Shown here piece after piece: positions 7,797 to 34,265 of a stretch of 41,540 nt of DNA; positions within the stretch are counted from its first letter, which is position 1, and each line of letters starts with the position of its first letter. Under the pieces are notes generated by a model that made no database searches, was not told the DNA's origin, and was given only the letters and a program-made list of their open reading frames with translations. A program made the translations under genes and the position numbers. Source of the DNA: Gaiellales bacterium (GTDB lineage: Bacteria; Actinomycetota; Thermoleophilia; Gaiellales; JAICJC01); contig DATLLN010000118.1 of NCBI GenBank assembly GCA_035537835.1, positions 1-41,540 on the forward strand, read 5' to 3'.

Positions 7797-9533
7797 CTAC
7801 CGGCCGGGTGCGGGCCTGCGGCCGGACCGCGGCAGGTCGGCCTGCGGGCCGGCGGCCGGGACTCGCGCCTGCGCGCCCGTGGCAGGCGGCGGAGCCGGCG
7901 GGCCGATGAACAGGAAGCCGTCGATGTCGATGCGCGGCCGTCCCGGAGTGCCGACCGGGCGGATCGTGATCCGGTGCTCCCCTGTCCTCACGAACGCATG
8001 ACGGAATACGACGACGCGCGGCGTCGTGGTCTTCGCGTACTCGCTGATGGTGGTCACGTAGTGCCCGTCGACGCTTATCCGCGCGGCGCCGCGTCCGGCG
8101 CTCTTCGGCGCGAACAGCGCGATCTCACGGCCGGTGAAGCTGAACGTCGCGGTCGCCTTCGGGTTGCCGGAGTAGCGCGTGTGGCCGCCGCGCGCGGTCG
8201 CGGAGTTGCCGGTCTGCCAGCCGCCCGCGTACCGGGCGCCGGTCTCCGGCGCGGCGTGCGTCGAGAACCCCGGCCCTGCCGCCGCCGCGCCGATGTTGCC
8301 GGGGCAGTCGCGCGGCGTCATCCGGAAGCGCAGCCGTGAGAACCCGGGGTACTGGGTGAAGCGCAGCGACTTGATGGTCGGCCACGGCATCACCACCGGT
8401 GTGTACGTGACCCCGGCATCCGTGGTGACCAGCATCGTCTGGTCGCGGATGTCGGTCAGCGCGTCGGAGTCGGCCCAGGACACCACGAACGGGACGTTGG
8501 TCAGCGGCACCTGGCCCGTCGGCACATGGCCGGTCGGCGGCGTGGTCGTCACCGGCGGGTCGTGGTCGACCGGGATGCTGCTCCACCGCAGGAACTCGTG
8601 GCTGCCCAGCAGGGTCGAGCCGTTGGCGCCGCCGAATGCCGCCATCCCCCACGTCGATGCGATCGCGGGCGCCCAGCTCCGGCCCTGCGACATCGGCGCC
8701 GTGCAGCGCCAGCCTTCGACCGACGGGTTGTAGGCGTCGACGCGCCGCAGGTCGCGCAGGCCGTCCCACCCGCCGATCACGTACATCGTGCCGTCGGGGC
8801 CGGTGACGGCCGAGGTCAGCTCGTGCGGCGAGGGCATCGGCGGCAGCTCGCTCCAGCCGGCCGCCAGGTTGTCGGGATCGAGCGAGAACGCCTCGCGCCG
8901 AGCTCCGGAGTCGTAGCCGCCGAACGCGTAGATGCGTCCGTCCCCGCCCAGCGTCGCGCCCAGCTCGGAGCGCGGCGACGGCAGCGGCGGGCCGCTCGAC
9001 CACGTGTCGGTGGCGATGTCGTAGATCTGGACGGTTACGGTGGGCGAATAGCGGCCGGCGGCATAAACCGCGCCGCCGATCGCGAAGATCCGGCCGTCCG
9101 GCGTGGCGACGGCCGCCAGGTCGGTACGCGGGCTGGGCATCGAGGCCTGCTGGCGGTACAGCCCTCCCCAGCTGTACACGCTCGGATTGATGACCTTCTT
9201 CAGCGTCTCCCCGCCCATCACGTAGATCCGCCCGTCGGAGCCGGTCGTGACGGCCAGCCCTCCGCGCGCGTTCCCGGGCAGCTCGTTGCCGCGCAGCCAC
9301 GCGATTGCGCCGGGGTTGTCGCCCCCGATGAAGACGGAGCGCAGGCCGGCGTACGTCCTGTTGCGGTCGAACCCGAAGCCGCCCGCCAGCACGACGCGAT
9401 CGCGGAAGATGGCCGTGCCGCCGCCCCACTGGTAGTAGGGCATGTCTGCGGTGCTCGTCCAGCTGTTCGCCGAGGCGGCGGCCGGTGCGATCACCGCCAG
9501 CATCACGACGACCAGTGTGAGTGCCCACTTCAC
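7797..9533 (-). CDS. Secreted Kelch-repeat protein with C-terminal beta-sandwich-like domain
   Basis: The gene starts with GTG and encodes a signal peptide (KWALTLVVVMLAVIAPAAASA/NS). It carries repeated Kelch signatures (RIYVMGG, RIFAIGGA, RIYAFGGYD, MYVIGGWDG, each followed by W). A Pro/Thr linker and a roughly 230-aa C-terminal domain of unknown function follow. Confidence 0.75.
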   Translation of the reverse strand: MKWALTLVVVMLAVIAPAAASANSWTSTADMPYYQWGGGTAIFRDRVVLAGGFGFDRNRTYAGLRSVFIGGDNPGAIAWLRGNELPGNARGGLAVTTGSDGRIYVMGGETLKKVINPSVYSWGGLYRQQASMPSPRTDLAAVATPDGRIFAIGGAVYAAGRYSPTVTVQIYDIATDTWSSGPPLPSPRSELGATLGGDGRIYAFGGYDSGARREAFSLDPDNLAAGWSELPPMPSPHELTSAVTGPDGTMYVIGGWDGLRDLRRVDAYNPSVEGWRCTAPMSQGRSWAPAIASTWGMAAFGGANGSTLLGSHEFLRWSSIPVDHDPPVTTTPPTGHVPTGQVPLTNVPFVVSWADSDALTDIRDQTMLVTTDAGVTYTPVVMPWPTIKSLRFTQYPGFSRLRFRMTPRDCPGNIGAAAAGPGFSTHAAPETGARYAGGWQTGNSATARGGHTRYSGNPKATATFSFTGREIALFAPKSAGRGAARISVDGHYVTTISEYAKTTTPRVVVFRHAFVRTGEHRITIRPVGTPGRPRIDIDGFLFIGPPAPPPATGAQARVPAAGPQADLPRSGRRPAPGR

Positions 9534-9565: not shown

Positions 9566-10393
9566 TCAAGCGCCGAGGGTGCGCGTCATCTCCCACTGGC
9601 GGTGCGGATCGAGCACCCCGCCGGCCGCTTCCAGAAACCCGTGCGCGGTGTCCCACTCCTCGGGCACGAGCGCCGGGATCGCGATCGTCTCGGCGCCCAG
9701 CCCGGCCAGCGCGCAGGTGGCGACGCCGCGGCCGCGCCGGGCCGGGTCGACCGCCAGCGCGTAGAGCCAGAACCGGCTGCCCCGCCGGCGGCCGAACACC
9801 ACCGCTTCGCCGGCCAGCGTGAACGCGGGCAAGCGCTCCAGCGAGGCCGGCAGGAGCTGCCACGGCGGATCGCACCAGCCCCAGGCCTCGAGCAGTCGGG
9901 CAGCCTCGGCCCCCGGCAGCGGGCCGAGCCCGCCGCGCATGCGTGCCCGCAGCCCAACGCGGGGCGGATCGAGCTCGTATCCCAGCAGCAGCCGCCGCCG
10001 GCGGAAGCCGTGGCGGTCATACAGCGCCAGCGCGGCGTCGTTCCCGTCGAGTACCTCCAGCGAGAGGTCGCGCGCGCCGGCGGCCGTTGCCGCCTCGACG
10101 GTGGCGTCGAGCACCTCCGCCCCCAGCCCACGACGGCGGTACGCGGGATCGGTGCCCTCGCCGCGGACGCTCGCCCGGCCGCCGCGCAGCGCGCCCAGGC
10201 AGAAGCTGGCCGGGTGGCCGTCGACGAACGCGGCGAACGACAGGTCGTGGCGGACGCCGGTCTCGACCATGTACGTGGCCAGGGCGGCGGCGTCCAGCCG
10301 CGCGGGCAGCGCGTAGTCCGAGAACGCCCGGTTGTGCAGGTCTGCGAGCCAGCTCTCGTCGCCCGGCTCGAGCGGACGGAGCTGCGCGGTCAA
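9566..10393 (-). CDS. GNAT family N-acetyltransferase (two-lobed)
   Basis: An acetyl-CoA loop is present (YRRRGLGAEVLDA) and a second degenerate copy (ARRGRGVATCAL). The only available start is TTG at 10393, which forms a TTGA overlap with the xerD stop. Confidence 0.68.
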   Translation of the reverse strand: MTAQLRPLEPGDESWLADLHNRAFSDYALPARLDAAALATYMVETGVRHDLSFAAFVDGHPASFCLGALRGGRASVRGEGTDPAYRRRGLGAEVLDATVEAATAAGARDLSLEVLDGNDAALALYDRHGFRRRRLLLGYELDPPRVGLRARMRGGLGPLPGAEAARLLEAWGWCDPPWQLLPASLERLPAFTLAGEAVVFGRRRGSRFWLYALAVDPARRGRGVATCALAGLGAETIAIPALVPEEWDTAHGFLEAAGGVLDPHRQWEMTRTLGA

Positions 10394-11271
10394 GCCCGGG
10401 GGTGGGCCCGCTGGTACGCCTCGCGGACGTGCTCGGCGGAGACGTGCGTGTAGACCTGGGTCGTCTCGATCGTGGCGTGCCCGAGCATCTCCTGCACGCT
10501 GCGCAGGTCGCAGCCGCCCTCGATCAGATGCGTCGCGAACGAGTGGCGAAGCGTGTGCGGCGTGACGATCTTCTGCACCCCGGCCGCGCGCGCGTGCTCG
10601 CGGACGAGCTGGAAGACGGCCTGCCGGGTGATGCCCTGGCCGCGGTGGTTGAGGAACAGGATGTCGCCGCGCTGCATGCGTCCGAGATGCGGGCGCCCGC
10701 GCTGCATGTAGACGCGGATGGCGTCGATCGCGCGGCCGCCGGTGGGGACGATCCGCTGCCGGGCACCCTTGCCCATGCAGCGAACCAGACCCTCCTCGAG
10801 GTCGACGTCCGAGACGCGGAGCGCGACCAGCTCGGAGACGCGCAGGCCGGCGCCGTACATCAGCTCGAGCATCGCGCGGTCTCGGAGACCCCGCGGCGAG
10901 CCGTCGGGCTGGGTGACGATGCGGTCGGCCTCCTCCGGCGTCAGCGGCTCCGGGAGCCGGCGGCCGAGCCGGGGAAGCGGCACCCCGCGGCCGGCGTCCG
11001 GCCGTCCGCCCTCGCGGGCGCGGTGCTTCAGAAAGGCGCGCACGGCGGCGAGCCGGCGGCGCACGGTGGCGGGCGAGAGCCCGCGATCGCGGAGCGCGAC
11101 GGCGTACTCGTCGAGCACCGAGACGTCGACCGTGTCGGGGTCGGCGTGCTCGATGAACATGCCGAGATCGATCAGGTCACGGCGGTAGGCCTCGATCGTG
11201 TGCGGCGACGCGCCACGCTCGAGCTGCAGGCTGGTCAGGAAGTCGTTGAGCTTGGCGTCATACGTCCTCAT
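10390..11271 (-). CDS. xerD: Site-specific tyrosine recombinase XerD (XerC/D family)
   Basis: The product has the N-terminal SAM-like domain (LQLERGASPHTIEAYRRDL) and catalytic motifs (LRVSEL, HTLRHSFATHL, LGHATIETTQVYTHV). The tlyA-nadK-recN...pyrG...xerD neighbourhood resembles mycobacteria, as I recall it. The start was trimmed to the ATG at 11271. Confidence 0.85.
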   Translation of the reverse strand: MRTYDAKLNDFLTSLQLERGASPHTIEAYRRDLIDLGMFIEHADPDTVDVSVLDEYAVALRDRGLSPATVRRRLAAVRAFLKHRAREGGRPDAGRGVPLPRLGRRLPEPLTPEEADRIVTQPDGSPRGLRDRAMLELMYGAGLRVSELVALRVSDVDLEEGLVRCMGKGARQRIVPTGGRAIDAIRVYMQRGRPHLGRMQRGDILFLNHRGQGITRQAVFQLVREHARAAGVQKIVTPHTLRHSFATHLIEGGCDLRSVQEMLGHATIETTQVYTHVSAEHVREAYQRAHPRA

Positions 11272-11334
11272 GGCGCCCCCATTCGCCACGGTCGTCACGA
11301 CTCCTTCTCGATCCGGTGGCCGATACTGGACGTA

Positions 11335-12372
11335 ATGCGCCAGCGGCTGACGACGATCCTCGTGCTCGCGCTGGTCGGTGCGCTGGTCGTTGCCGTGGTG
11401 GTCGACACCGAGCGCGGGGGCGGTCAGCACGACCGCCCGGTGCGTGGCCCCGCGCCGCGTGTGGAGCCCCTCGCTGCCGGCGTGCTGGGCGGCAGGCTGC
11501 TGTACGCCGACACCGACTGCCGAATCGTGCAGGTCGACCTGGCGACGTTGTCGTCGGAGACGCTGACAGGGAGCGGCGGGCACTGCAGGTTCTGGCCCTC
11601 GCCCGACGGGCGCTGGCTGGCGATGCACATCGGCAGGCCGTTCGTTCCTCCCGTTCCGCTCGAGCTGCTCAACCTGCGCACCGGGCGGATCACCCGGCCG
11701 CTGCACCGGCCGGACTTCGCCGTCGCGCCGCCGGCGTGGAGCGCGGACTCGCGGACGCTGGCGGTGTGCGATGCGCGGAATCCCGGCGAGCGGCTGGTGC
11801 GGGTCGACGTCGCCAGCGGGCGCGTCAGCCCGGTGCGCCGCGACGCGTGCTTCCCGGCGTACGCCGCCGGCAAGCTCGCGTATCGCGAGGTGGGCGGCGC
11901 GGTCGACCTGGACGGTCAGACGCTGGCCGACGCCGGAACGCTGACGCGGCTGCTCGGCTTCGCCGTGGATCAGATCCCCGGGATCACCGGGCAGGGCTCG
12001 ACGCTGGCGGTGCCGACGACCCGTGTGACCGTGCCCGGCGCGGCGCCGCCGCTGACCACCGTGGTGCTCTACGACGGCGGTGACGGCAAGGTCAGCCAGG
12101 TCTGGCAGTCGGGCGTGATCGCCCAGGAGGTGACCCTGCTCGACGATGGGCGGATCGTGGCCGCCCGCGCAGACGACCGGCTGTTCATCCGCACACTCAG
12201 CGGCCGCCGGCTGACCAGCACGGGCGACCTGCCGATCGTCGCCGCGGCCGCGTCGCCGGACGGGCGGACGCTGGCCCTGGCCACCCCCGGTCGGCTGATT
12301 CTCGCCGATGCCGAGACCGGCGCCGCGCGCTTCAGCCTGCCGATCGCGACGACCTGGGTCGCCTGGCGCTGA
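11335..12372 (+). CDS. Membrane-anchored PD40/TolB-like beta-propeller protein
   Basis: The ATG at 11335 gives MRQRLTTILVLALVGALVVAVVV, a transmembrane anchor. Repeated SPDG/SADS-R-xLA motifs follow (WPSPDGRWLA, AWSADSRTLAV, ASPDGRTLALA). The 5' 1.4 kb of the 809-aa ORF is antisense shadow sequence over xerD and the GNAT gene. Confidence 0.6.
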   Translation: MRQRLTTILVLALVGALVVAVVVDTERGGGQHDRPVRGPAPRVEPLAAGVLGGRLLYADTDCRIVQVDLATLSSETLTGSGGHCRFWPSPDGRWLAMHIGRPFVPPVPLELLNLRTGRITRPLHRPDFAVAPPAWSADSRTLAVCDARNPGERLVRVDVASGRVSPVRRDACFPAYAAGKLAYREVGGAVDLDGQTLADAGTLTRLLGFAVDQIPGITGQGSTLAVPTTRVTVPGAAPPLTTVVLYDGGDGKVSQVWQSGVIAQEVTLLDDGRIVAARADDRLFIRTLSGRRLTSTGDLPIVAAAASPDGRTLALATPGRLILADAETGAARFSLPIATTWVAWR

Positions 12373-17983: not shown

Positions 17984-20900
17984 ATGCCTGCCTGCCAGGT
18001 TTGTGGCGTCGAGCACGACGCGGGGGCGCGATTCTGCAGCGCGTGCGGCGCACCGACGTTCCAGCTCTGCGCCGTCTGCGGCGCCGAGTCGCCGACGGCT
18101 GCGAGCTTCTGTTCCGCCTGCGGCGCGGGGCTGCGGGACGGCGCACGGCGGGGCGACCCCGTCGCCGTCGCCGACGAGCGCCGGGTGGTGACGATCCTGT
18201 TCGCCGACCTGGCCGGCTCGACTGCCCTCGGCGAGCAGCTCGACCCCGAGGACGTCCGCGACGTCCAGGGGAGGCTCTTCGATGTCGTCGACGCCGAGGT
18301 CACCCGGTTCGGCGGCGTCAGCGAGAAGTTCGCGGGCGACGCGGTGATGGCCGTGTTCGGGATCCCCCAGGCGCATGAGGACGACGCCGAGCGCGCCGTG
18401 CTCGCAGCGCTGGCCACCCAGCGCCGGTTCCCCGACCTGGCAGAGCGCGTCCGCACGCTGCACGGCAGCGAGGTCGCGCTGCGGATCGGTGTCAACACCG
18501 GCGAGGTGGTCACCGGCCGGGACTCCGCGGCCCGCGGCGAGATGATGGTCTCCGGCGACGCCGTCAACGTCGCCGCCCGGCTGCAGCAGCACGCCGAGCC
18601 CGGCGCCGTGCTGGTCGGCGAGCGGACGATGGGCGCCAGCCGCGGCGCGATCGGCTACGGCCCGCGCACGGAGCTGCAAGCCAAGGGCAAGAGCGCGCCG
18701 CTGTCGGCGTGGCCGGCCCAGGGAGCGCTCGACCGGCCCCGCCGCCGGGGGATCGAGGGCCTGCGGGCGCCGATGGTCGGCCGCGACCAGGAGCTCGCGC
18801 TGCTGATCACGCTGGCCGGCCGCGTCGCCGAGGAGCGGGCGCCGCAGGTGGTCACGCTGCTGGGCGTCGCCGGCGTCGGCAAGACCCGCCTCCTGGACGA
18901 GCTGGCCGTTCGCGTCCCCGCGCGGGTGCTGCGCGGCCGTTGTATCCCCTACGGCGAGGGCGTCGCCTACTGGCCGCTGGCCGAGGTGGCCAAGGCCGAG
19001 GCCGGCATCTTCGACAGCGACTCGGCGGCGGCGTCGCTGGAAAAGCTGCGGGCGGCCTTCGGCCGCGACTCGGAGAGCGCGGTGCAGGCGGCCGCGTGGA
19101 CGATCGGCCTGGACACCGGCAGCATCGAGGTGGAATCCGACGTCGTCCGCCGCCGCCTCCACGACCACTGGACGCGATACCTGGCGACCGCCGCTGCCGC
19201 CGGCCCGGTGCTGCTGGTGATCGAGGACATCCACTGGGCGTCCACCGAGATGCTCGACCTGATCGAACGCCTGGCCACGCGCCTGGAGGACGCGCCCGTG
19301 ATGATCCTCTGCTCGTCGCGGCCGGAGCTGCTGGAGTCGCGCCGCTCCTGGGGTGCGGGGCTGCCGAACGCGACGACGGTCAGCCTGACGCCGCTGCGCG
19401 CCGAGCAGGCCCGGCTGCTGCTGGCGGAGCTGCTGGAGCTCGGCCAGATGCCCGACGACGCGTTGGGGCGGATCCTCGCCCGGGCCGAAGGCAACCCCTT
19501 CTACATCGAGGAGATCCTGCGGATGCTGATCGACCGCGGCGCGATCGAGCGCGCCGGGTCAGGCTGGCGGTCGACCGACCTGCTGGCCGACATGCCGATC
19601 CCCGACTCTGTGCACGGCGTGATCGCCGCCCGGATCGACCTGCTCGACGCGCCGTCCCGCGATGCGCTGCGCCGCTGCTCGGTGATCGGACGCAGGTTCT
19701 GGCCCGACGCGGTCGGTGTCTCGCCCGACCTGGTCTCGGGCATCGGCGGCGGGCTGGTCGCCGAGAACGCGGAGTCGGCGATGGGCGCGATGCGCGAGTT
19801 CAGCTACCGGCACGCGCTCACCCGGGACGTGGCGTACAGCTCGCTCTCGCGTCCCGAGCGGCGCGAGCTGCACGTGCAGGTCGCCGACTGGATCGTGCGG
19901 CTGTCGGCGGAGCAGGGCCGCGAGGAGTCGGAGCTGATCGCCGACCACCTGATCCGCGCCATCGAGAACGGCGCCGACGATCCGCTGCTGTTTCGGCAGG
20001 CGGTCGACGCGCAGCGCCGCGCCGGGCAGGCCGCGCTCGCCCGCGGTGCAGCCCAGTCGGCGCTGCCGATGCTGATGCGCGCACACGAGCTGTCCGACGA
20101 TCCCGCCGAACAGCGGAGGATCGATCTGCTGATCGCGGAGGCGGCGGTGCATGCCAGTGCGGGCGAGCTGGTGCAGGAACGCCTGCAGCCGCTGCTCGAG
20201 CAGGCCGAACGCGACGCCGACGATGGCCTGCTGGCCGACGTGCTGCCGCTGCTCTCGCGCGCGCACTGGATTCTGGGCGACTACGACCAGGCTGCCGAGA
20301 CCGCGGCGCGAGCGGTCGCGGTGCTGGGTGAGGACGCCGACGACGCCCAGCGTGCGCATGCCGTCGCCCGCCACGCCCAGATCCAGATGCTGCGGTCGAT
20401 CCCCGAGGCCGAGCAGAACGCCGAGATCGCACTCGAGCTGGCCAGACGCGTCGGTGACCGCGGGCTCGAGGCGAACACGATCACGACACTGCTCACCATC
20501 CGCGGCCAGGCCGGCGTACCGATCGGCGCCGACGTGTTCCACGCCGCGCTGAATGCCGCGACGGAGTCGGGCAACGCGGATGAGATCCCGCGGGCGCTCG
20601 TCAACTACGCCTGGGTCGCCCAGGCGGACGTCCCGATCGCCGAGCTCGAGGAGGCCTTCCGGATCGGCGAGGCGGCGGCCGATGCCGTCGAGGCCGGCGA
20701 TCGCTTCCTCTCCTACGTCACCTTCACCCGCTGCCTGTACATCCTGGTGCCGACCGGCCGCTGGGACGAGGTCGACGATGCGTTCCGGCGCTGGCCGCAC
20801 CCGGAGACGAACCCCCTGATGCTCTCGCACTGGCTTGCAGTCGAGCTCGCCATCCGCCGCGGCCGGCTGCACCATGCCGACCGGCTGCTCCCGGAGGCGG

Positions 20901-21415
20901 TGGCCATGGCCGAGCGCACATCGGAGCCGCAGCGGATCATCCCGATCTCGGCGCTCGACGCATCGCGGGGAGCGCTGCTCGGCGATGTGGCCCGCGTGCG
21001 GGCCGCGGCCGAGCGGACGATCGCGGCGATCCGCGGGCGGACGGCAGCGACGTCGTTCACCGAGCACCCGCTGCCCCGGGCGCTGGCCAGGGTCGGCGAC
21101 GTCGAGATGCTCGACCGCATGCTCGCGCTGTACGCCGAGGAGGTCGGCGAGCCGCGGATGGTGCGACTGAGGGCCGCCGGGCTGGCGCTGCACGGGTTCC
21201 GAGCGCTGGCGGCGGGCGACGGCTCGACGGCCCTGCCGCTGTTCACGCAGGTGCGCGAGATTGAGGCCGCACGGGGTGCGGTCGTGCATGCGGCGGACGT
21301 CGATCTTGATCTTGCAGCCGCGCACGACCTCGCCGGGGATCCCGCGGCCGCCGCCGAGGCGCGGACCCGAGCGGCGGCGGTCTACGAGCCGCTGGCGGCC
21401 GTCAACTCGCCTTGA
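17984..21415 (+). CDS. Double zinc-ribbon / class III adenylate-guanylate cyclase / P-loop (AAA_16, STAND-like) ATPase / TPR-like repeat protein
   Basis: The N-terminus has four CxxC pairs (CQVCG...CSACG...CAVCG...CSACG). Cyclase motifs are present ([42 protein letters not shown]). Walker A is [11 protein letters not shown] and Walker B is [10 protein letters not shown]. About 650 aa of helical repeats follow, with no C-terminal HTH visible. Confidence 0.85.
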
Positions 21416-24752: not shown

Positions 24753-25528
24753 CAGGCCGTCCGCGTGGCGACCATCTGGGTGAGGCCGGCCAGCTCGGCC
24801 GTGTCGCCCGGGATCGCCGCCAGCAGCTCGTCCGCCCGGGCGCGCGACTCCTCGGCAAGCGTTCGCGCACGCTCCATGCCCAGCGTGTTCACGTAGCTCG
24901 GCTCGCCATCGCTGCCCTCGTCCAGGATGTCGTCGACGATCTGGAACAGCAATCCCAGCTCGGCACCGTAGGCGCGGAACGGCCCCGGCTCGGCGCGAGC
25001 GACCAGCGCGCCGCACACCACCGACGCCTCGATCAGGGCGCCGGTCTTGAGCCGGTGGATGCGGATCAGCTCCCGCTCGTCGGGCAGTCCGTCGGCGGTC
25101 ACGTCCAGGTACTGCCCGTCGATCATCCCGGCCACGCCGCGCGCCAGCTCCGAGGTCACCGCGAGCCGTACCTCGGCCGGGGCGTCGAGGCCCTCGGCGA
25201 CCAGCCGCAGCGCGCCGTTCAGCAGCGCGTCCCCCACCAGCACGGCGACCGCCTCCCCGAAGCGGACGTGGCTCGTCGGCTGGCCGCGACGCTCGTCGTC
25301 GTCGTCGAGCGCCGGCAGGTCGTCGTGGACGAGTGAGAACGCGTGCACCATCTCCAGCGCAGCGGCAGCCGGCAGCGCGTCGCGGGGGTCGGCCCCAGCC
25401 GCCCGCGCCGCGGCCAGGCACAGGCGCGGTCGCACGCGCTTGCCGCCCGACAGCAGCGAGTAGCGGATCGCCTCGTCCAGCTCTGGCAGGGCCGAGCCCG
25501 AGACGCCCTGAAGGTACTCCTCGATCAG
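24752..25528 (-). CDS. ispA: Polyprenyl (farnesyl/geranylgeranyl) diphosphate synthase
   Basis: The FARM motif (LVHDDLPALDDDDERRG) and SARM motif (FQIVDDILD) are present. The conserved N-terminal block EAIRYSLLSGGKRVRP lies upstream of the first ATG/GTG/TTG (25435). I therefore place the start at the CTG at 25528, and this start is uncertain. Confidence 0.8.
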   Translation of the reverse strand: MIEEYLQGVSGSALPELDEAIRYSLLSGGKRVRPRLCLAAARAAGADPRDALPAAAALEMVHAFSLVHDDLPALDDDDERRGQPTSHVRFGEAVAVLVGDALLNGALRLVAEGLDAPAEVRLAVTSELARGVAGMIDGQYLDVTADGLPDERELIRIHRLKTGALIEASVVCGALVARAEPGPFRAYGAELGLLFQIVDDILDEGSDGEPSYVNTLGMERARTLAEESRARADELLAAIPGDTAELAGLTQMVATRTA

Positions 25529-25710
25529 GTGGACGGCTGCCGCTGTTCGAGCTCCCCGGCCTGCCGCTCCACCTCGTCCAGCGCCCGCTGCGCGAGCGCG
25601 GTGATCCGCTCCAGCACCTCGGTCGCCGCGTCGGCGTCCAGATCCTCGCGCTCCAGCCGGCCGCGCAGGTCAGCGATCTCGGCCGTCAGTCCTTCGATCT
25701 GCTCGGTCAT
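25525..25710 (-). CDS. xseB: Exodeoxyribonuclease VII small subunit-like protein
   Basis: This is a 61-aa helical acidic protein (LTAEIADLRGRLEREDLDADAATEVLERITALAQRALDEVERQ) with the XseB-like L..LE..DL pattern. It sits immediately upstream of ispA, as in Firmicutes. A GGGGGTGGGG ribosome-binding site is present, and there is an ATGA overlap with nusB. No xseA is present in the window. Confidence 0.5.
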   Translation of the reverse strand: MTEQIEGLTAEIADLRGRLEREDLDADAATEVLERITALAQRALDEVERQAGELEQRQPST

Positions 25711-26108
25711 GTCCCCACCCCCTCGGTTCGGGCGATGTTTCCCAGTATCCCATTCACGAGCGACGCCGCCTCGGGGGACGCGTACCGCTTGGCCAGCGAC
25801 ACCGCCTCGTCGATCGCCACCGCCGGCGGCACCTCCCCGGTGCGCAGCTCGTGGACCGCCAGCCGCAGCACGTTTCGCTCCAGCACCGCCATCCGGTCGG
25901 CGCTCCAGCCGGCCGCCGCCGCGTCGATCAGCCGGTCGAGGTCGCCGCGCTGGTCCCACGCTCCCTCCGCCTGCTCGCGGGAGAACGCGGACACCGGCGA
26001 CCCGTTGTCCCGCTCGTACGCCTCGTACAGCTCCGGGAACGGGCTGTCCAGCAGGTCGCGCTGGTACAACAAGAAGGCCGCCGCACGCCGCTCCTCGCGG
26101 CGGCTCAC
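25707..26108 (-). CDS. nusB: Transcription antitermination factor NusB
   Basis: The 133-aa product from the GTG at 26108 has NusB motifs (RREERRAAAFLLYQ, VLRLAVHEL, AIDEAVSLAKRY, LVNGILGNI). There is a GTGA overlap with the asp23 stop. Confidence 0.88.
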   Translation of the reverse strand: MSRREERRAAAFLLYQRDLLDSPFPELYEAYERDNGSPVSAFSREQAEGAWDQRGDLDRLIDAAAAGWSADRMAVLERNVLRLAVHELRTGEVPPAVAIDEAVSLAKRYASPEAASLVNGILGNIARTEGVGT

Positions 26109-26446
26109 GGCCGGTCCCCCGGCTCGGTGCGGTCGAGCCCGGTCACCGTCACGTCCACGGCACGGACGTTCAGGCCGGTCATCGAGCCGATCGCCGTTGC
26201 GACGCTGCCGCGCACCCGCTCGGCGGTACCCGGCAGCGGCTGCCCGTAGACCACGGCGACGTCCACGTCGAAGCGGATACCCTCGCCGTCCATGCGCCAC
26301 TCGACGGCTCCACGCCGCCCGGGCAGCACGCGGGCGATCCGGCTCGGGCGGTCGAGGCGGGCGCCCTCGACCGTCGCGACGGCGCCGCGCACGATCGACA
26401 CCACCGCGTCATCCGAGAGCACTGCGCCGCGCACCCGCAGGCTCAT
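26105..26446 (-). CDS. Asp23/Gls24 family envelope stress protein
   Basis: The 113-aa product has the family pattern (VSIVRGAVATVEG...VDVAVVYGQPLPGTAERVRGSVATAI...VDVTV). Its position between accC and nusB matches Bacillus yqhY. Confidence 0.85.
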   Translation of the reverse strand: MSLRVRGAVLSDDAVVSIVRGAVATVEGARLDRPSRIARVLPGRRGAVEWRMDGEGIRFDVDVAVVYGQPLPGTAERVRGSVATAIGSMTGLNVRAVDVTVTGLDRTEPGDRP

Positions 26447-27813
26447 GCGACCGCCTGTTCCGACATCGACGCCAGCGACGGTCCCGCCTGCTCGAGATAT
26501 GCGGTCGTGTAGCGCCCGGCGGCGAACGCCGGCTCCTCGATGATCTCCAGAAACAGCTCGCGCGTCGTCGCGACGCCCTCAATCTCGAGCTCGCCCAACG
26601 CCCGGCGCGCCCGGCCCAGCGCCTCGGCGCGGTCGCTGCCGTGCACGATCAGCTTCGCCAGCATCGAGTCGTAGAACGGCGGCACGCGGTAGCCCTCGTA
26701 GGCATGAGTGTCGAACCGTACGCCGGGCCCCAGCGGCGCCGCCAGGTGCGTGACGGTGCCGGCAGCGGGCATGAACCCGCGGCGCGGGTCCTCGCAGTTG
26801 ATCCGGAACTCGATCGCGTGGCCGCGCAGGGGCGCCAGCCCGGTCGCCGGCAGCGACTCGCCGCCCGCGATCCGCAGCTGCCAGCAGGCGATGTCGACGC
26901 CGGTCAGGAGCTCCGACACGGGATGCTCGACCTGCAGCCGCGTGTTCATCTCGATGAAGAAGAACCGCCCCTCGGCGTCCAGCAGGAACTCGACCGTGCC
27001 GGCGTTGACGTAGCTGCAGGCCCGGCACGCCAGCTCCGCTGCCGCCGCCATCTGCGACCGGGTCTCCGGATCGAGCGCCGGCGAGGGCCCCTCCTCGATC
27101 AGCTTCTGATGGCGTCGCTGGATCGAGCAGTCGCGCTCACCCAGCACCAGCACCCCGCCGGCGGCGTCGGCCAGCACCTGCATCTCGACGTGGCGCGGCT
27201 CGACCACCGCCTTTTCGAGGTACATGCCGCCGTCCCCGAACGCCCCCTGGGCTTCGGCGGACGCGGTGCGGTAGGCCTCGTCCAGCTCGTCCGGCGCGTG
27301 CACCAGGCGCATGCCGCGCCCGCCGCCGCCGGCCGCGGCCTTCAGCAGCACGGGGTATCCGACGCCCTCCGCCAGCTCCCGCGCCTCGCCGGCGCCCGAA
27401 AGCCGGTCGGCGCTGCCCGGCACCAGCGGCACGCCGGCGTCGCGCATAGTCCGCTTGGCCGTGCTCTTGTCGCCCATCATCTCGATCGCCTCCGGCCCCG
27501 GACCGACGAACACGAGGTCGTTGTCCTGGCAGGCGCGGACGAAGCCCGCGTTCTCGGCCAGAAAGCCCCATCCCGGGTGGACGGCGTCGCAGCCGGTCGT
27601 CTCGGCCGCGCCGATCAGGTTGCGGACGTTCAGGTAGCTCTCCCCCGGAGGATGCGGACCGACGCACACGGCGCGATCGGCGAGCCGCACCCAGAGGCCA
27701 TCGCGGTCGGCGGTCGAGTAGACCGCCACCGCCTCGATCCCCAGATCGTGGCACGCGCGGACGAGCCTCACCGCTGCCTCCCCGCGGTTCGCGATCAGCA
27801 CCCGCTCGAGCAT
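26443..27813 (-). CDS. accC: Biotin carboxylase
   Basis: The 456-aa product has VLIANRGEAAVRLVRAC, HPGWGFLAENAGF, an ATP-grasp domain and EMNTRLQVEHPVSE. Confidence 0.95.
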   Translation of the reverse strand: MLERVLIANRGEAAVRLVRACHDLGIEAVAVYSTADRDGLWVRLADRAVCVGPHPPGESYLNVRNLIGAAETTGCDAVHPGWGFLAENAGFVRACQDNDLVFVGPGPEAIEMMGDKSTAKRTMRDAGVPLVPGSADRLSGAGEARELAEGVGYPVLLKAAAGGGGRGMRLVHAPDELDEAYRTASAEAQGAFGDGGMYLEKAVVEPRHVEMQVLADAAGGVLVLGERDCSIQRRHQKLIEEGPSPALDPETRSQMAAAAELACRACSYVNAGTVEFLLDAEGRFFFIEMNTRLQVEHPVSELLTGVDIACWQLRIAGGESLPATGLAPLRGHAIEFRINCEDPRRGFMPAAGTVTHLAAPLGPGVRFDTHAYEGYRVPPFYDSMLAKLIVHGSDRAEALGRARRALGELEIEGVATTRELFLEIIEEPAFAAGRYTTAYLEQAGPSLASMSEQAVA

Positions 27814-27817
27814 GGCC

Positions 27818-29590
27818 TCAGGCGGGCTCGAGCTCGAACAGCGGCTGGCCGTACTCGACGGGCTGGGCGTTCTCGACCAGGACGCCCCGGATCACGCCGG
27901 CGTGCTCCGACTTGAACTCGTTGAACAGCTTCATCGCCTCGAGCACGCACAGCGTCTGCCCGACCTCGACCCGATCGCCCTCGGCCACGAAGGCGTCGGC
28001 TGTGGGCGACGGGGACCGGTAGAACGTGCCGACCATCGGCGACTCGATCTTGATCACCGTCGAGACCGATGCCGGCGAGGGCTCGGCGGCCGGTGCTCCC
28101 TCCTGGACGGCGGCGACAGCGACCGGCGGCGCCGCCGGCTGGCGGTCGTCCTGCCGGCGTACCGTGATCTTGACGCCGTGATCCTCGATCGTCAGCTCCC
28201 CGACGCCCGACGTCTCGACCATATCGATCAGCTCGCGGATGCGTGCCGCCTCGCCGCGATCGAAGCCGCCGTCAGTGTGAGTCTCGTCACGGTCGGTGCG
28301 CCCGCGCAGCGCCTCCAGCAGCCGGTTCGCCTCCTCGCCGAACAGCGCAACCAGCAGCAGATCCTCCTCGCTGGCGGCGATGCCCTCGGCGCGCATCCGG
28401 TCGAGGTCGATCGTCTCCGGCGGGGGCGGCTCGACGGCGAACGCCGCCGCCTCCGGCGCCAGCTCGTAGGGCGGCGTGCCGTACACGCCGGACAGGTAGT
28501 CGCGCATCTCGTCCGAGACCTCGGCCCAGCGGCGCGCGGACAACACGTGGAGCACGGCCTGGGCGGCCAGGATGCCGCCCACCGGCTGGGCCAGCGGCGG
28601 CATGCCGCAGTCCATGCGCACCTGCTTGATCTCGTCGAGCACCTCGTCCAGCCGGTCGGGGGCGCCCAGGTAGCGGAGCCGCGCGTCCAGCTCGGCGACC
28701 ATGCCCACCGGCACGCGGTTGAACGCCGTCCGCAGCGTGATCCGCGGCGGGATCGGCGGCGCCGGCATCTGCGACGTGACGTGCTCGTCGATGAACCGGG
28801 AGGCGCGCCACACCTGGTCGACGTCCACGCCGTGCTCGATGCCGAGGCCGGTCAGCCCCTCGCACAACACCTCGGCGGCCACCCGGTGCAGCGTCCACGC
28901 GACCGGATAGCACGCGGTCGCGATCGGCTCGGCGCCGTGCTGCGCGGACTCGATCGCCATCGCCATCGCGTTGCCGCCGGTGCCCTGGCAGTAGAGGCCG
29001 ACCGGGATGCCGGCGGCCTCGCGCAGCTCGTTGATCACCTTGTCGCACGTGCCCGGGTCGAGCGCGCCCGCCGGGTCGTGGAGCAGCACGTGGTCGGCGC
29101 CCAGCTCGGCCAGACGGCGGGCCTTGTCCAGCACCCGCGGCAGGTTGGGCATGGCGCCCGAGAACGCCAGGCCGGCGTACAGCGTGCGGCCCGCCTCGCG
29201 CACCGCGGCCGCCGCCGAGGCCAGGTTCTCGACGTCGTTCAGCGGGTCGTGGAGCCGGAAGATCTCGATGCCGCTCTCGGCGGCGCAGAGGATGAACCGG
29301 CGCACCAAGTCGTCGGGCAGCGGCCGCGAGCCGACCAGGAACCGGCCGCGCAGCGCCATCTGCAACGGCGTGTTGCCACACCGGGCGCGGAGTGCGCGGA
29401 CGCGCTCCCACGGGCTCTCCGAGCCGCGGTTGACGGCCGCCTCGAAGCAGCCGCCGCCGGTCACCTCGAGCGCGCCGAAGCCGGCGCCGTCCAGGATCTC
29501 GGCCACCTCCAGCACACGGGCGGTCGACAGCGTCCCGACGAGCGGGGGCTGGGACAGCAGCCGCAGCGTGGTGTCGACGATCCGGGTCAC
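27818..29590 (-). CDS. Fusion of an OadA/PycB/5S-type carboxyltransferase-like domain (metal-site motifs substituted) with a full-length biotin carboxyl carrier protein
   Basis: The N-terminal roughly 430 aa are collinear with oxaloacetate decarboxylase alpha (PWERVRALRA, TPLQMALRGR, IEIFRLHDPLNDVENL, QPVGGILAAQAVLHVL). The C-terminus has an AccB N-motif (IRELIDMVETSGVGELTIEDHGVKITVRR), a Pro/Ala linker and CVLEAMKLFNEF. The GTG start forms a GTGA overlap with efp, and the stop lies 4 nt upstream of accC. Confidence 0.85.
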   Translation of the reverse strand: MTRIVDTTLRLLSQPPLVGTLSTARVLEVAEILDGAGFGALEVTGGGCFEAAVNRGSESPWERVRALRARCGNTPLQMALRGRFLVGSRPLPDDLVRRFILCAAESGIEIFRLHDPLNDVENLASAAAAVREAGRTLYAGLAFSGAMPNLPRVLDKARRLAELGADHVLLHDPAGALDPGTCDKVINELREAAGIPVGLYCQGTGGNAMAMAIESAQHGAEPIATACYPVAWTLHRVAAEVLCEGLTGLGIEHGVDVDQVWRASRFIDEHVTSQMPAPPIPPRITLRTAFNRVPVGMVAELDARLRYLGAPDRLDEVLDEIKQVRMDCGMPPLAQPVGGILAAQAVLHVLSARRWAEVSDEMRDYLSGVYGTPPYELAPEAAAFAVEPPPPETIDLDRMRAEGIAASEEDLLLVALFGEEANRLLEALRGRTDRDETHTDGGFDRGEAARIRELIDMVETSGVGELTIEDHGVKITVRRQDDRQPAAPPVAVAAVQEGAPAAEPSPASVSTVIKIESPMVGTFYRSPSPTADAFVAEGDRVEVGQTLCVLEAMKLFNEFKSEHAGVIRGVLVENAQPVEYGQPLFELEPA

Positions 29591-30153
29591 GCGCGTGCGA
29601 TGTACCGGGCCTCGCGGGTGTCGACGCGGATCACGTCCCCGACGTTGACGAAAAGGGGCACCTGCACGACTGCGCCCGTCTCCAGCGTCGCCGGCTTGGT
29701 CACGTTCGAGACGGTGTCGCCCTTGACGCCCGGCTCCGTATCGGTGACCGTCAGCTCGACCGCGGCCGGAAGCTGCAGGGACGTCGGCTTGCCGTCCACG
29801 GTCAGCAGCTGCACGGCGTCGTTCTCGCGCATGAAGGGGAGCTCCTCGGCCACCATGCCCACCGGCAGCGGGATCTGGTCGAACGTCTCGGCATCCATCA
29901 GGTGGACGTCCTGGCCGTCGTTGTACAGGTAGCTCACGCTCTTCATCTCGGTGCGGATGCGGGTCAGCTTCTCGCCGGCGCGAAAGGTCTTGTCGACGAC
30001 ACCGCCTGCGTCGATCGCCTTCAGCTTGGTGCGGACGAACGCGCCGCCCTTGCCCGGCTTGACGTGCTGGAACTCGACGATCCGGTAGATCGTGCCGTCG
30101 ACCTCGACGTGCATGCCGTTCTTGAACTGGTTGGTCGTGACGGTCTCAGCCAT
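29587..30153 (-). CDS. efp: Translation elongation factor P
   Basis: The 188-aa product has NQFKNGMHVEVDG, the VEFQHVKPGKGGAFVRTKLK loop and a typical C-terminal OB domain. Confidence 0.95.
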   Translation of the reverse strand: MAETVTTNQFKNGMHVEVDGTIYRIVEFQHVKPGKGGAFVRTKLKAIDAGGVVDKTFRAGEKLTRIRTEMKSVSYLYNDGQDVHLMDAETFDQIPLPVGMVAEELPFMRENDAVQLLTVDGKPTSLQLPAAVELTVTDTEPGVKGDTVSNVTKPATLETGAVVQVPLFVNVGDVIRVDTREARYIARA

Positions 30154-30171: not shown

Positions 30172-31254
30172 TCATCCGGTCGTGATCAGCTCCTTAGGGT
30201 AGCCCGTCAGGCGCTCGCAACCATCCGCCGTGACAACCACCAGGTCCTCGATCCGCACGCCGCCGACGCCGGGCAGGTAGATGCCGGGTTCCACTGTGAC
30301 GACCATGCCGGGCTCGAGAGTTGCGGACGAGCTGGGCGCGAGCCGCGGCGCCTCGTGGACGGCGAGCCCGACGCCGTGGCCCAGGCCGTGGCCGAAGTGC
30401 GCGCCGTGCCCCGCCGCCTCGATCATGTCGCGCGCCACCGCGTCGACCGCCGCCCCGCCGGCATCCGGGCGGACGGCATCGAGCGCGGCCAGCTGCGCCT
30501 CCAGACAGAGGTCGTACGCGGCGGCCAGCTCCTCGGGCAGGTCCCCCTCGGTGGCGAACGTGCGCGTGCAGTCCGAGCAGTAGCCCTCGAACACACACCC
30601 GATGTCCAGGGTGACCAGCGTGCCGGGGCCGATCACCTCGTCGCGCGGCTCCGCGTGCGGCAGTGCGCCGGCCGCGCCGGAGGCGACGATCGAGTCGAAC
30701 GACGGGCCTTCGGCGCCCGCCTCGTGGAACCGCTCAAGCACGCGCCACGCGACCTCGCGCTCGGTGCGGCCGATCAGCCCCTCCTCGGCGATCCCCTCGT
30801 ACACGCCCTCCAGCACGGCCGCCGCGCGCCGCACGGCGGCGATCTCGTCGGCGTCCTTGACCGCGCGCAGCGCCTCGACCACTCCGGACTGCGGCGTGAT
30901 CTCGACCCCGGACAGCTCCTCGGTCAACCGGCGGTGGCGCGCGACGGTCAGGTTGCCCTCCTCGAAGCCGAGCGTCCCGCCGTCCGTCAGCTCGCGCGCC
31001 GCTTCCGCCAGCTCGGCCAGCATCTCGCGCTCGCCGCGCCGGACGTCCGTGAACTCGCGCAGCGGCTGTGCCCGCTCCACATAACGGAAGTCGGTCAGGA
31101 ACACCGAGGCCGACGGCGCGACGACGAGCATCGCGTTCGAGCCGGTGAAGCCGGTCAGGTAGCGGATGTTGACGAGGTCGGTGAGCAGCAGCGCGCCCAG
31201 GCCGAGCTCCTCCACCCGCTCGCCGGCACGCGCCAGCCGGTCGCCGTAGCTCAC
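30172..31254 (-). CDS. Xaa-Pro aminopeptidase/dipeptidase (M24B)
   Basis: The product has a creatinase-like N-domain (NIRYLTGFTGS) and M24 metal ligands (DIGCVFEGYCSDCTRT, HGLGHGVGLAVHE, VTVEPGIY, IEDLV). The GTG at 31254 forms a GTGA overlap with the aroQ stop. Confidence 0.88.
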   Translation of the reverse strand: MSYGDRLARAGERVEELGLGALLLTDLVNIRYLTGFTGSNAMLVVAPSASVFLTDFRYVERAQPLREFTDVRRGEREMLAELAEAARELTDGGTLGFEEGNLTVARHRRLTEELSGVEITPQSGVVEALRAVKDADEIAAVRRAAAVLEGVYEGIAEEGLIGRTEREVAWRVLERFHEAGAEGPSFDSIVASGAAGALPHAEPRDEVIGPGTLVTLDIGCVFEGYCSDCTRTFATEGDLPEELAAAYDLCLEAQLAALDAVRPDAGGAAVDAVARDMIEAAGHGAHFGHGLGHGVGLAVHEAPRLAPSSSATLEPGMVVTVEPGIYLPGVGGVRIEDLVVVTADGCERLTGYPKELITTG

Positions 31255-31685
31255 CCGCCGCGCTCCGTGAGGTGCGCCATCGCCTCGCGGTAGCCGTCGA
31301 CGCCGTGCCCCGAGATGCGATAGTCGACCACCTCGGCGATCACCGAGTGGCGGCGCCACTCCTCCCGCTGCTCGACCGCGGACAGGTGCACCTCGACCTT
31401 CGGGCGGTCGAAGACCTCGAGCGCATCGCGGATCGCGTAGCTGTAGTGCGTCCAGGCGCCGGGGTTGACGATCAAGGCGTCGACCCCGCCGGTGTATGCC
31501 TCATGGATCATGTCGACGTAGGCGCCTTCGCTGTTGGTCTGCCAACAGCGCGCGGTCACCCCCACGTCCGACGCCCACCCGTAGATCAACGTCTCCAGCT
31601 GCGACAACGTGGTCGACCCGTAGACCGCGGGATCGCGCTTGCCCAGCATGTTCAGGTTGACCCCGTTGAGGATGACGATCTGCAT
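31251..31685 (-). CDS. aroQ: Type II 3-dehydroquinate dehydratase
   Basis: The 144-aa product from the ATG at 31685 has ILNGVNLNMLGKRDPAVYG, QTNSEG, VNPGAWTHYSYAIRDA and EVHLS. Confidence 0.92.
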   Translation of the reverse strand: MQIVILNGVNLNMLGKRDPAVYGSTTLSQLETLIYGWASDVGVTARCWQTNSEGAYVDMIHEAYTGGVDALIVNPGAWTHYSYAIRDALEVFDRPKVEVHLSAVEQREEWRRHSVIAEVVDYRISGHGVDGYREAMAHLTERGG

Positions 31686-32771: not shown

Positions 32772-34265
32772 TCATTCGACGGCTCGCGCGATCGCGCTGT
32801 CGATCAGATCGTCCGGCACGTCGACGCCGTGCACCGGCGATCCGACCCCCTCGAGCAGCACGAATCGCACGCGCCCGGAGCGAGCCTTCTTGTCGCGGGA
32901 GAGGGCGGCGCGCACCTCCGCGCGGTCGACGCCGCTCCAGGACGTCGGCAGCTCGTGATGGACCAGCAGCTCACGCACCTCGTCCTCGACAGCCGGGTCG
33001 AGGCCGCAGAGCTGGGTCGACAGCCAGAGCGCCGGCAGCAGGCCGACGGCCACCGCCTCGCCGTGGCTGATGCCGGTGTACCCGGCCGCGGCCTCGATGG
33101 CGTGGCCAATCGAGTGGCCCAGGTTGAGGATGGCCCGCCGCCCTTGCTCCTGGGGGTCCTCTGCGACCACCCGGGCCTTGAACGCCGCGCACCGGCGGAT
33201 CAGCTCGAGCCGCCGCTCCGGCGTGCCCCGGCCCGGCTCCCAGCCGGTGACCATCTCCCACGTCCGTCCGCCCGCGAGCAGCCCGGTCTTGATCACCTCG
33301 GCGAACCCGGCCGTCCACTCGCGCAGGGGCAGCGTGTCGAGCACGCCGGGGTCGGCGACCACCCACTCGGCGGGGTGGAACGCGCCGACGTAGTTCTTGG
33401 CGGCGGGCAGGTCGATGCCGGTCTTGCCGCCGATCGCGGCGTCCACCATCCCCAGCAGCGTGGTCGGGACGGCGATCCATGGCACGCCGCGCTGGTAGGT
33501 CGCGGCCACGAATCCGGCCAGGTCGGTCGCCGCGCCCCCGCCGAGCCCGACCACGACGTCGCCACGCTCCAGGCCGAGCTCCGCCAGCCGCGTCCACGCC
33601 TGGCGGGCGACGGCGACGGTCTTGGCCGCCTCGCCCGACGGCAGCCGCACGGTGACCAGCGGCTCGACCGGCGTACCCACCAGCCGCAGCACGGCCCGAT
33701 CGGCCACCAGCGCCGACCGCCGCGGGTGCACCAGCCGGGGCAGCTCCTCGATCGCACCGGCGCGGCACAGCGGTACCAGCAGCGGCTCGAGGCCGCTCAT
33801 CTCGTCGGCGTCGACCAGCGCATCGGCCGCGTCCCGGTAGGCGGGCTGCCGCTCCCGGTAGAGATCGGCGAAGCGCGCCGGGTCGACGGCCAGCGGGCGC
33901 TCGCCGGCCTCGGCCTCGACGCGCCGCCATGCGGTCTGCGGGGAGACGTCGAGCAGCACGGTGAACGTCCCATCGCGCAGCCGCTCACGGATCAGCGGCG
34001 ACCCGACGGCCCCGCCGCCCAGGCTGACCACGGTGTCCATCCGCTGCAGCAGCTCGTCGACGACCCGCTCCTCGAGCTCGCGGAACACGGCCTCGCCGTC
34101 GTCGGCGAAGATCGCCGGAACCGGCTTGCCCACCGCCTGCTCGATGGCGGCGTCGGCATCGACCGCATCCCAGCCCAGCTCGCTCGCCAGGATGCCCGCC
34201 GTGGTGGTCTTGCCGGCGCCCATGAACCCGATCAGGGCGAGGTTCCGGTAGGGCCCGGGGATCAT
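32772..34265 (-). CDS. aroKB: Bifunctional shikimate kinase / 3-dehydroquinate synthase
   Basis: The N-terminal AroK part has a P-loop (LIGFMGAGKTT) and DAD...FRELE. The AroB part has GGGAATDLAGFVAATYQRG, PTTLLGMVDAAIGGKTG and LNLGHSIGHAIE. There is an ATGA overlap with aroC. Confidence 0.9.
   Translation of the reverse strand: MIPGPYRNLALIGFMGAGKTTTAGILASELGWDAVDADAAIEQAVGKPVPAIFADDGEAVFRELEERVVDELLQRMDTVVSLGGGAVGSPLIRERLRDGTFTVLLDVSPQTAWRRVEAEAGERPLAVDPARFADLYRERQPAYRDAADALVDADEMSGLEPLLVPLCRAGAIEELPRLVHPRRSALVADRAVLRLVGTPVEPLVTVRLPSGEAAKTVAVARQAWTRLAELGLERGDVVVGLGGGAATDLAGFVAATYQRGVPWIAVPTTLLGMVDAAIGGKTGIDLPAAKNYVGAFHPAEWVVADPGVLDTLPLREWTAGFAEVIKTGLLAGGRTWEMVTGWEPGRGTPERRLELIRRCAAFKARVVAEDPQEQGRRAILNLGHSIGHAIEAAAGYTGISHGEAVAVGLLPALWLSTQLCGLDPAVEDEVRELLVHHELPTSWSGVDRAEVRAALSRDKKARSGRVRFVLLEGVGSPVHGVDVPDDLIDSAIARAVE

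Follow-up and report, generated by a model that had tools for sequence, protein, structure and literature searches.

What occupies the position of the biotin carboxyl carrier protein (BCCP, AccB) gene in soil actinobacteria of the Gaiellales, and why would a carrier be joined there to what looks like the remains of another enzyme? Heteromeric acetyl-CoA carboxylase (ACC) catalyses the step that commits bacterial metabolism to fatty-acid synthesis and is an antibiotic target, and its BCCP is usually regarded as a small stand-alone carrier. The question is raised by a stretch of 41,540 nucleotides (hereafter the window; contig DATLLN010000118.1 of assembly GCA_035537835.1) from a Gaiellales bacterium, a soil actinobacterium with a genome of 72% GC. 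In the accB slot of this window, an open reading frame (ORF) at positions 27818..29590 of the minus strand (590 aa, start GTG, stop TGA, GC content at third codon positions 0.96) codes for a "long AccB", that is, a carboxyltransferase (CT)-like domain followed by a complete AccB, as indicated by Pfam, NCBIfam, and the reading of the junction. We consider it probable that this fusion is the AccB of the cell and that the CT domain serves as a scaffold, catalytically dead and structurally entrenched.

The identity of the C-terminal part relies on comparisons that cover a whole AccB. The fusion passes the NCBIfam AccB equivalog model TIGR00531 with 134.3 bits (cut-off 115.2) over aa 450-588, corresponding to profile positions 5-155 of 156, and its last 162 aa can be aligned over their full length with the Escherichia coli AccB 4HR7_B (1.5e-28) through the N-terminal domain, the Pro/Ala linker, the thumb, and the biotinyl Lys554. 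Specifically, the AccB N-terminal domain (aa 445-480; 28151..28258, on the minus strand as are all the features of the fusion) aligns with residues 8-60 of 4HR7_B and is modeled by AlphaFold2 as a helix (aa 445-461) and a beta-hairpin (strands at aa 465-478). In the E. coli BCCP, the corresponding segment is the part that binds the biotin carboxylase AccC, and in the fusion the aligned residues read IRELIDMVETSGVGELTIED. This domain is followed by a flexible Pro/Ala-rich linker (aa 481-512; 28055..28150), with predicted local distance difference test (pLDDT) values below 50, and by an ACC-type biotinyl domain (aa 513-590; 27821..28054), recognized by Pfam and by alignments, which carries the thumb FYRSPSPTADAF in place of the FYRTPSPDAKAF of E. 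coli AccB and the EAMK motif, with the codon of Lys554 at 27929..27931. The distance between PMxG and AMK is 36 residues, typical of carriers with a thumb, versus 29 in ordinary PycB, and the ACC-specific thumb is present in 70 of 70 complete orthologs. Apart from these, the ortholog of one genome (L013, CAWCOL010000005.1; P0081) is N-terminally shortened, loses the frame just before EAMK, and has a garbled C-terminus, with two AccB-like pieces found by tblastn, as expected from either an assembly frameshift or a genuine disruption of the carrier.

The N-terminal part belongs to a different family of enzymes. Pfam recognizes an HMGL-like domain at aa 3-267, with only 32.5 bits, a PYC_OADA domain at aa 291-434, and Biotin_lipoyl at aa 514-587. 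The N-terminal part consists of a (beta/alpha)8 barrel of the CT type found in OadA, PycB, and transcarboxylase 5S (PF00682; aa 1-270; 28781..29590) and a helical "funnel" subdomain (PF02436; aa 271-435; 28286..28780). HMMER matches it to PycB 5KS8_C (1.9e-70), OadA 2NX9 (9e-58), and transcarboxylase 5S 1RQB (4e-49). The PycB domain model NF006761 is matched end to end with 368 bits, below its cut-off of 402, with members retaining an intact site scoring 769-874 and intact CT-AccB fusions 769-866, and the oadA model TIGR01108 is not passed (323 bits; cut-off 756.5). An earlier note, made from the sequence alone, had described the protein as an N-terminal region collinear with OadA, PycB, and 5S joined to a whole AccB with a Pro/Ala linker and a biotinyl-Lys motif; the profile searches, the alignments with 4HR7_B, and the structural matches agree with it on both halves.

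The CT-like domain has lost the residues that build the active site of this family. In DRE-TIM metallolyases of this type, the divalent metal is held by an Asp on strand beta1, a carbamylated Lys on beta6, and a His-x-His on beta7. The metal ligands of Vibrio cholerae OadA, D17, K178, H207, and H209, agree with the chain numbering of 2NX9 in the alignment. Ligand positions were located by HMMER alignments to 5KS8, 2NX9, and 1RQB and by MAFFT, and conserved flanking positions leave no ambiguity in the placement of the residues of the fusion. The LRDxHQS motif is changed to LRLLSQP, so that Leu11 (codon at 29558..29560) stands at the site of D17 and the following His is replaced by Ser13; IKDMAG is changed to LHDPAG, with His171 (29078..29080) at the site of the carbamylated Lys K178; and HLHxH is changed to GLYCQ, with Tyr200-Cys-Gln202 (28985..28993) at the site of the His-x-His ligands H207/H209. 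Moreover, the PGGM[IL][ST]N loop reads PVGMVAE, with Ala299 at the position of the catalytic Thr/Ser, and LLGY, whose Tyr at position 91 contacts biotin, reads LVGS. Of the 53 columns conserved in at least 90% of 36 intact CTs, 39-40 are retained by the fusion and by two further dead subfamilies, mostly fold-defining Gly, Pro, and Asp, and 13 are lost, including D11, K171, H200, H202, Y91, W44, F114, D224, and G295; in most cases, the three carry the same replacement. Arg10, Gln14, and Arg81, the equivalents of the substrate-binding R548, Q552, and R621 of pyruvate carboxylase, are retained. The three substitutions reported in the earlier note thus hold exactly, and all four metal ligands, the carbamyl-Lys among them, are replaced at the canonical sites. 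Since the metal centre, the biotin contacts, and the catalytic contacts are lost, canonical carboxyl transfer is no longer possible, and the canonical metal-dependent machinery is gone. The description of the domain as probably catalytically dead stands in this restricted sense only, in that a conserved and remodeled polar pocket leaves room for other binding or catalysis.

Loss of the active site is not accompanied by decay. In the AlphaFold2 model, built from a 40-sequence alignment, the mean pLDDT is 87.9, the eight strands of the barrel all exceed 90, and disorder is confined to two linkers (aa 436-444 and aa 482-510). Foldseek superposes the CT part on OadA 2NX9 with a template modeling (TM) score of 0.84 (root mean square deviation 3.4 A) and on 5S 1RQB with a TM score of 0.81 (3.0 A), and it also retrieves 5KS8 (1e-41). 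The ratio of nonsynonymous to synonymous substitution rates (dN/dS), calculated by the Nei-Gojobori method on 60 ortholog pairs, is 0.073 for the barrel, 0.18 for the funnel, 0.33 for the AccB N-terminal domain, 0.42 for the Pro/Ala linker, and 0.082 for the biotinyl domain, and no other region of the protein is as well conserved as the barrel (119 homologs, 68-96% identity). A pseudogene in decay is ruled out by a dN/dS of 0.07 together with a high-confidence fold, and the codon comparisons and the model together describe a CT domain that stays folded under strong purifying selection.

The same composition is found across the lineage. A scan of the genome collection with patterns specific to the dead clade matched at least 576 species-level genomes, and the best 80 of these are all Thermoleophilia, Gaiellales, or Gaiellaceae metagenome-assembled genomes (MAGs); the N-terminal domain of the window fusion shares 99% identity with that of the MAG MFD05442.bin.2.232. 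Complete or near-complete MAGs with the gene include OY969804.1, OY969568.1, OY970326.1, and CAVRGW010000005.1, the last of which is also 99% identical to the window over the N-terminal domain of the fusion. Across 80 species, the substituted positions are nearly invariant, with Leu11 in 79 of 79 species, Gln202 in 81 of 81 sequences, His114 in 80/81, Tyr200 in 78/81, and His171 in 77/81, so that the pocket combines residues that are kept (R10, Q14, R81, D115, D172) with new ones (H114, H171, Y200, Q202). The intact fold, the low dN/dS, and the near-invariant replacements fit the proposal of a pseudo-enzyme domain permanently attached to the carrier.

The fusion itself is more widespread than its dead form. 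An exhaustive search of representatives, followed by typing of the CT site and of the C-terminus, resolves a gradient of four states. Ordinary PycB/OadA representatives have an intact site, lack both the AccB N-terminal domain and the thumb, and fail TIGR00531. An intact site joined to a complete AccB is found in P0130 and its entire family in Syntrophomonadaceae, which includes the cultured Syntrophomonas erecta, S. zehnderi, and Thermosyntropha lipolytica as well as Ca. Syntrophocurvum, and in P0126 and P0439-P0443; intact-site fusions also occur in MAGs labeled as Thermoleophilia (P0441/P0442; the NCBI label is on one of the P0126/P0439-P0443 set). Partly degenerate forms are P0144 (Lys to Met), P0442 (Lys to Thr), and P0153/P0177 of Hydrogenedentota. 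Lastly, fully degenerate forms comprise the Gaiellales L/H/Y/Q type, a Thermoleophilia "S/K/D/D" clade (P0149, P0156, and others), and P0163. In P0442 (L091, 1170..3059; Thermoleophilia MAG GCA_054603895.1), CIKDMAA is changed to CITDMAA in a fusion that is otherwise fully intact, a change that may mark the beginning of site loss or may be a sequencing error.

Intact and degenerate fusions share the same genomic position. The gene lies directly 5' of accC in every context examined and, in all but one, within an efp-X-accC-(asp23)-nusB slot, which in Syntrophomonadaceae is the Bacillus-type pepP-efp-spoIIIA-accB-accC-asp23-nusB-folD arrangement. The exception, P0144 (L008, 6001..9244; Bacillota MAG GCA_013178275.1), adjoins accC outside the efp/nusB slot and is surrounded by acyl-CoA dehydrogenase, enoyl-CoA hydratase, AMP-ligase, and 2-hydroxyacyl-CoA dehydratase genes, a setting that points to an additional, catabolic role of the CT-AccB module. 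A locus with an intact fusion (L092) and one with a degenerate fusion (L090) have the common synteny pilMNO-aroC-aroKB-aroQ-pepP-efp-X-accC-asp23-nusB-dxs-tlyA-nadK-recN-pyrG, and the two forms are positional orthologs in related genomes. Between these two loci, EF-P is 70% and AccC 68% identical, and the fusion just 39%; the fusion of L092 is 54% identical to the intact fusion of the phylum-distant Syntrophomonadaceae. Likewise, the window fusion shares 59-61% identity with intact fusions in the biotinyl domain and 32-35% in the barrel, compared with barrel identities of 59% among intact forms and 57-59% within the dead clade. The loss of the site therefore went together with a burst of change, after which constraint was renewed. 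The residues that replace the ligands differ between clades, which points to several independent losses. The AccB part is kept in all clades despite the recurrent loss of the CT site, and the CT domain is never deleted. The earlier suggestion that a fusion has replaced the BCCP gene is therefore correct as to the slot and has to be amended as to its history: the protein is not a recent replacement but a member of a multi-phylum CT-AccB family, some of whose members have an intact site, and what is special to Gaiellales is the loss of the CT site rather than the fusion.

These observations can be arranged in a scenario in which the N-terminal 435 aa derive from a pyruvate/oxaloacetate CT that was joined to AccB in an ancestor. 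The intact-site forms, together with AccC, comprise every part of a two-subunit pyruvate carboxylase, an activity that the ancestor may have had. In the Gaiellales lineage, the metal centre was lost together with the biotin and catalytic contacts, and the folded domain was retained. CT domains of the OadA/PycB/5S family dimerise, and the assembly of carrier and AccC may have come to depend on the CT as an oligomeric scaffold, a case of structural entrenchment. Since AccB is always kept, the site is repeatedly lost, and the domain is never deleted, structural dependence on the CT core is the most economical reason for its retention. The carrier would be carboxylated by AccC, encoded 4 nt downstream, and would presumably deliver CO2 to an acyl-CoA CT encoded elsewhere; a lineage-specific ligand-binding role of the remodeled pocket may add to the scaffold role.

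Some observations weigh against a dead scaffold serving ACC. A pure scaffold is not obviously in need of a near-invariant polar pocket, and the conservation pattern hints at a ligand or at a remodeled site. In a distance-based neighbor-joining tree, the degenerate clades group together, which may reflect a single ancient loss or long-branch attraction instead of independent losses. Moreover, no ACC CT gene is present among the 30 ORFs of the window in Pfam scans, and tblastn searches with AccA and PccB sequences as seeds found no acyl-CoA CT in 89 related loci (1.17 Mb). Nor is a second carrier or another anaplerotic enzyme linked to the operon in these loci or in the window.

The conserved pocket could be taken to mean that the site is remodeled and not dead, with the CT-like domain still acting on carboxybiotin or on a 2-oxo acid. 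His114, His171, Tyr200, and Gln202, together with Asp115 and Asp172, would then form a new metal site or a metal-free oxyanion site and, with AccC, a non-canonical two-subunit carboxylase or transcarboxylase. The invariance of Arg10, Gln14, Arg81, Asp115, and Asp172 speaks for such a site, as do the polar, potentially metal-binding, and near-invariant replacements in 80 species and the position of the barrel as the most conserved part of the protein. We nevertheless regard it as unlikely, given that position 171 is occupied by H, L, N, Q, A, D, M, or E in the wider dead clade, that the position of the metal-binding Asp is a hydrophobic Leu in every member, and that the biotin-contacting Tyr91, the PGG loop, and the catalytic Thr/Ser (Ala299; A, S, G, or T) are lost or variable; other degenerate clades of the same slot have quite different pockets, so that no common chemistry is preserved. 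The retention of the carboxylate-binding Arg/Gln/Arg triad beside the conserved polar pocket, with substrate contacts kept and catalytic and biotin contacts lost, can also be read as the signature of an allosteric sensor of pyruvate, oxaloacetate, or a related carboxylate that gates the carrier or AccC and ties malonyl-CoA synthesis to central carbon metabolism. A precedent that counts for it is given by the plant BADC proteins, pseudo-subunits that regulate heteromeric ACC. However, Q14 and D172 are absent from the S/K/D/D clade, as are Q14 and R81 from P0163; with the triad incomplete in the other degenerate clades, sensing cannot be the general reason for the retention of the domain, and the retained Arg and Asp may simply be structural. 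A sensor in Gaiellales therefore has, in our view, a small chance of being correct, on a par with that of a remodeled catalyst.

The absence of a linked acyl-CoA CT gene from the operon in the 89 loci would also be explained if the fusion and AccC acted outside ACC, as the relic of a two-subunit pyruvate carboxylase with another role or none, and malonyl-CoA were supplied by an actinobacterial AccA(BC-BCCP)/AccD enzyme, BC being biotin carboxylase; most Actinomycetota indeed use carboxylases made of a BC-BCCP alpha and an AccD beta subunit (PMC3199775). Conversely, the C-terminus scores above the cut-off of the AccB equivalog model and the ACC-specific thumb is found in every complete ortholog, conservation is strong in the biotinyl domain (dN/dS 0.08) and in accC, the operon stays in the ancestral accBC slot, and a functionless remnant would not give a dN/dS of about 0.07 across at least 576 species, making this the least probable of the alternatives. 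The entrenched scaffold thus remains the preferred explanation. In a broader and rather speculative picture, to which we give only a modest chance, the BC/BCCP pair of the intact members of a multi-phylum "long AccB" family would serve pyruvate in cis and acetyl-CoA in trans, even allowing an ATP-free oxaloacetate:acetyl-CoA transcarboxylation, and the Arg/Gln/Arg/His/His/Tyr/Gln pocket of the Gaiellales pseudoenzyme would bind a metabolite and regulate malonyl-CoA synthesis.

The operon around the fusion is compact. The accC gene (26443..27813, minus strand; 456 aa), identified by Pfam and NCBIfam as biotin carboxylase, begins after a gap of 4 nt (GGCC) between the TGA of the fusion and its own ATG, and the stop codon of efp (29587..30153, minus strand) overlaps the start codon of the fusion as GTGA, so the fusion gene is translationally coupled to its neighbors. 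An asp23-family gene (26105..26446, minus strand) lies 3' of accC and is followed by nusB, a conserved operon context, and the ORF list and Pfam place efp, pepP, and aroQ upstream. The order efp, CT-like domain, AccB, accC is found in 76 of 80 species loci, the remaining four ending at a contig edge. Sequence and Pfam therefore corroborate the placement of the gene in the accB slot of accB-accC-asp23-nusB, with its 4-nt gap to accC and its GTGA overlap with efp, as proposed in the earlier note. A separate short AccB produced from an internal start was ruled out, as no Met or Val is conserved between aa 405 and 454.

Further features of the window concern gene calling and neighboring loci. The ORF list takes the longest frame in each case, so that nusB (25707..26300, minus strand) and pepP (30172..31359, minus strand) overlap asp23 and aroQ by approximately 100-200 nt. 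Given that the NusB domain begins only at aa 69 of its ORF, both genes probably start further downstream than listed. High GC content also accounts for many long antisense ORFs, such as 25333..27915 on the plus strand (860 aa), which are artefacts. The shikimate kinase and 3-dehydroquinate synthase genes form an aroK-aroB fusion (32772..34265, minus strand; 497 aa), as in L005, L007, and L092, and are split in L090. A 1143-aa ORF (17984..21415, plus strand) has the length of a single-chain pyruvate carboxylase and was rejected as such, its domains being those of a zinc ribbon, an adenylate/guanylate cyclase, and an AAA_16 ATPase. No other plus-strand gene interrupts the long minus-strand block around it; it lies between recN and pyrG, where the relatives L001 and L002 lack a counterpart, and so looks like a lineage-specific insertion. 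A tyrosine recombinase (10390..11706, minus strand; 438 aa as listed, Phage_integrase and SAM-like) has approximately 150 aa before its recognized domains, due to a mis-called start in high-GC DNA or to an unusual extension. Lastly, a 578-aa Kelch-repeat beta-propeller (7797..9533, minus strand), a fold uncommon in bacteria, is flanked by a GNAT acetyltransferase on one side and a phosphopentomutase-like metalloenzyme on the other.

The architecture seems to have escaped description. A full-text literature search found no account of a CT-AccB protein or of its dead form, in agreement with the first impression that this is not a described ACC or pyruvate carboxylase architecture, and reviews on biotin-carboxylase evolution and fused ACCs (PMC3199775, PMC11077971) do not mention such a fusion; Lombard & Moreira 2011 only note, among pyruvate-type CTs, "divergent sequences of unknown function". 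No dedicated curated NCBIfam model matched the fusion, and database names for the family are inconsistent (AccB, OadA in JGI, PycB, "Aldolase-type TIM barrel", hypothetical), which would wrongly predict an oxaloacetate decarboxylase or a pyruvate carboxylase in metabolic reconstructions of Gaiellales. In this abundant soil lineage, with its at least 576 species-level genomes, the carrier is permanently joined to a 48-kDa ex-enzyme whose barrel is under the same degree of constraint as the biotinyl domain. The intact, partly degenerate, and dead orthologs provide a natural series for studying how pseudoenzymes originate and are retained, and the intact forms raise the question of whether ACC and pyruvate carboxylase share one BC/BCCP pair.

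Comparison with known systems clarifies what the fusion retains from each of them. With E. coli-type AccB (4HR7_B, 1BDO), it shares a collinear C-terminal region of approximately 150 aa and a gene position immediately 5' of accC, whereas an ordinary AccB of approximately 150-180 aa has no counterpart of the 435-aa CT-like domain. With the intact-site CT-AccB fusions, it shares the architecture, the slot, the AccB N-terminal domain, and the thumb, but these keep LRDAHQS, IKDMA, HxH, and PGGMISN, all of which are lost in the window protein. PycB of M. flagellatus (5KS8) is the best match in sequence and fold and is similar in the order of CT and carrier and in having a stand-alone biotin carboxylase as partner; unlike PycB, the fusion has lost the metal ligands, has no BT-like domain, and carries an ACC-type carrier with a thumb and an AccB N-terminal domain. 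Bacterial PycA, an alpha subunit of approximately 471 aa, builds the BT-like domain with PycB via an Ala-rich C-terminal helix, in an alpha2beta4 holoenzyme (PMC5059739). The AccC of the window (456 aa, with the C-terminus ...YLEQAGPSLASMSEQAVA) lacks this helix, as do all the partner AccCs of the fusions (447-460 aa), which are of the ACC type and pass PRK08591. A canonical PycA/PycB assembly is ruled out, with no BT-like elements and with the AccB N-terminal domain sitting between CT and carrier, and, because the PycA-type helix is absent, this N-terminal domain is the likely link between the fusion and AccC, as in E. coli ACC. OadA of V. cholerae (2NX9) and 5S (1RQB) have the CT fold in common with the fusion, which differs from them in the replaced Zn/Co site, in the AccB-type carrier, and in having no oadB or oadG nearby. 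Other BCCPs are also joined to an ACC component, as in the BC-BCCP of Chloroflexus (PMC11077971) and in AccADCB (PDB 9KKM), and in both the fusion shapes the oligomeric assembly; their partners, however, are genuine active parts of ACC, either BC or an acyl-CoA CT, unlike the dead pyruvate-type CT that accompanies the carrier here.

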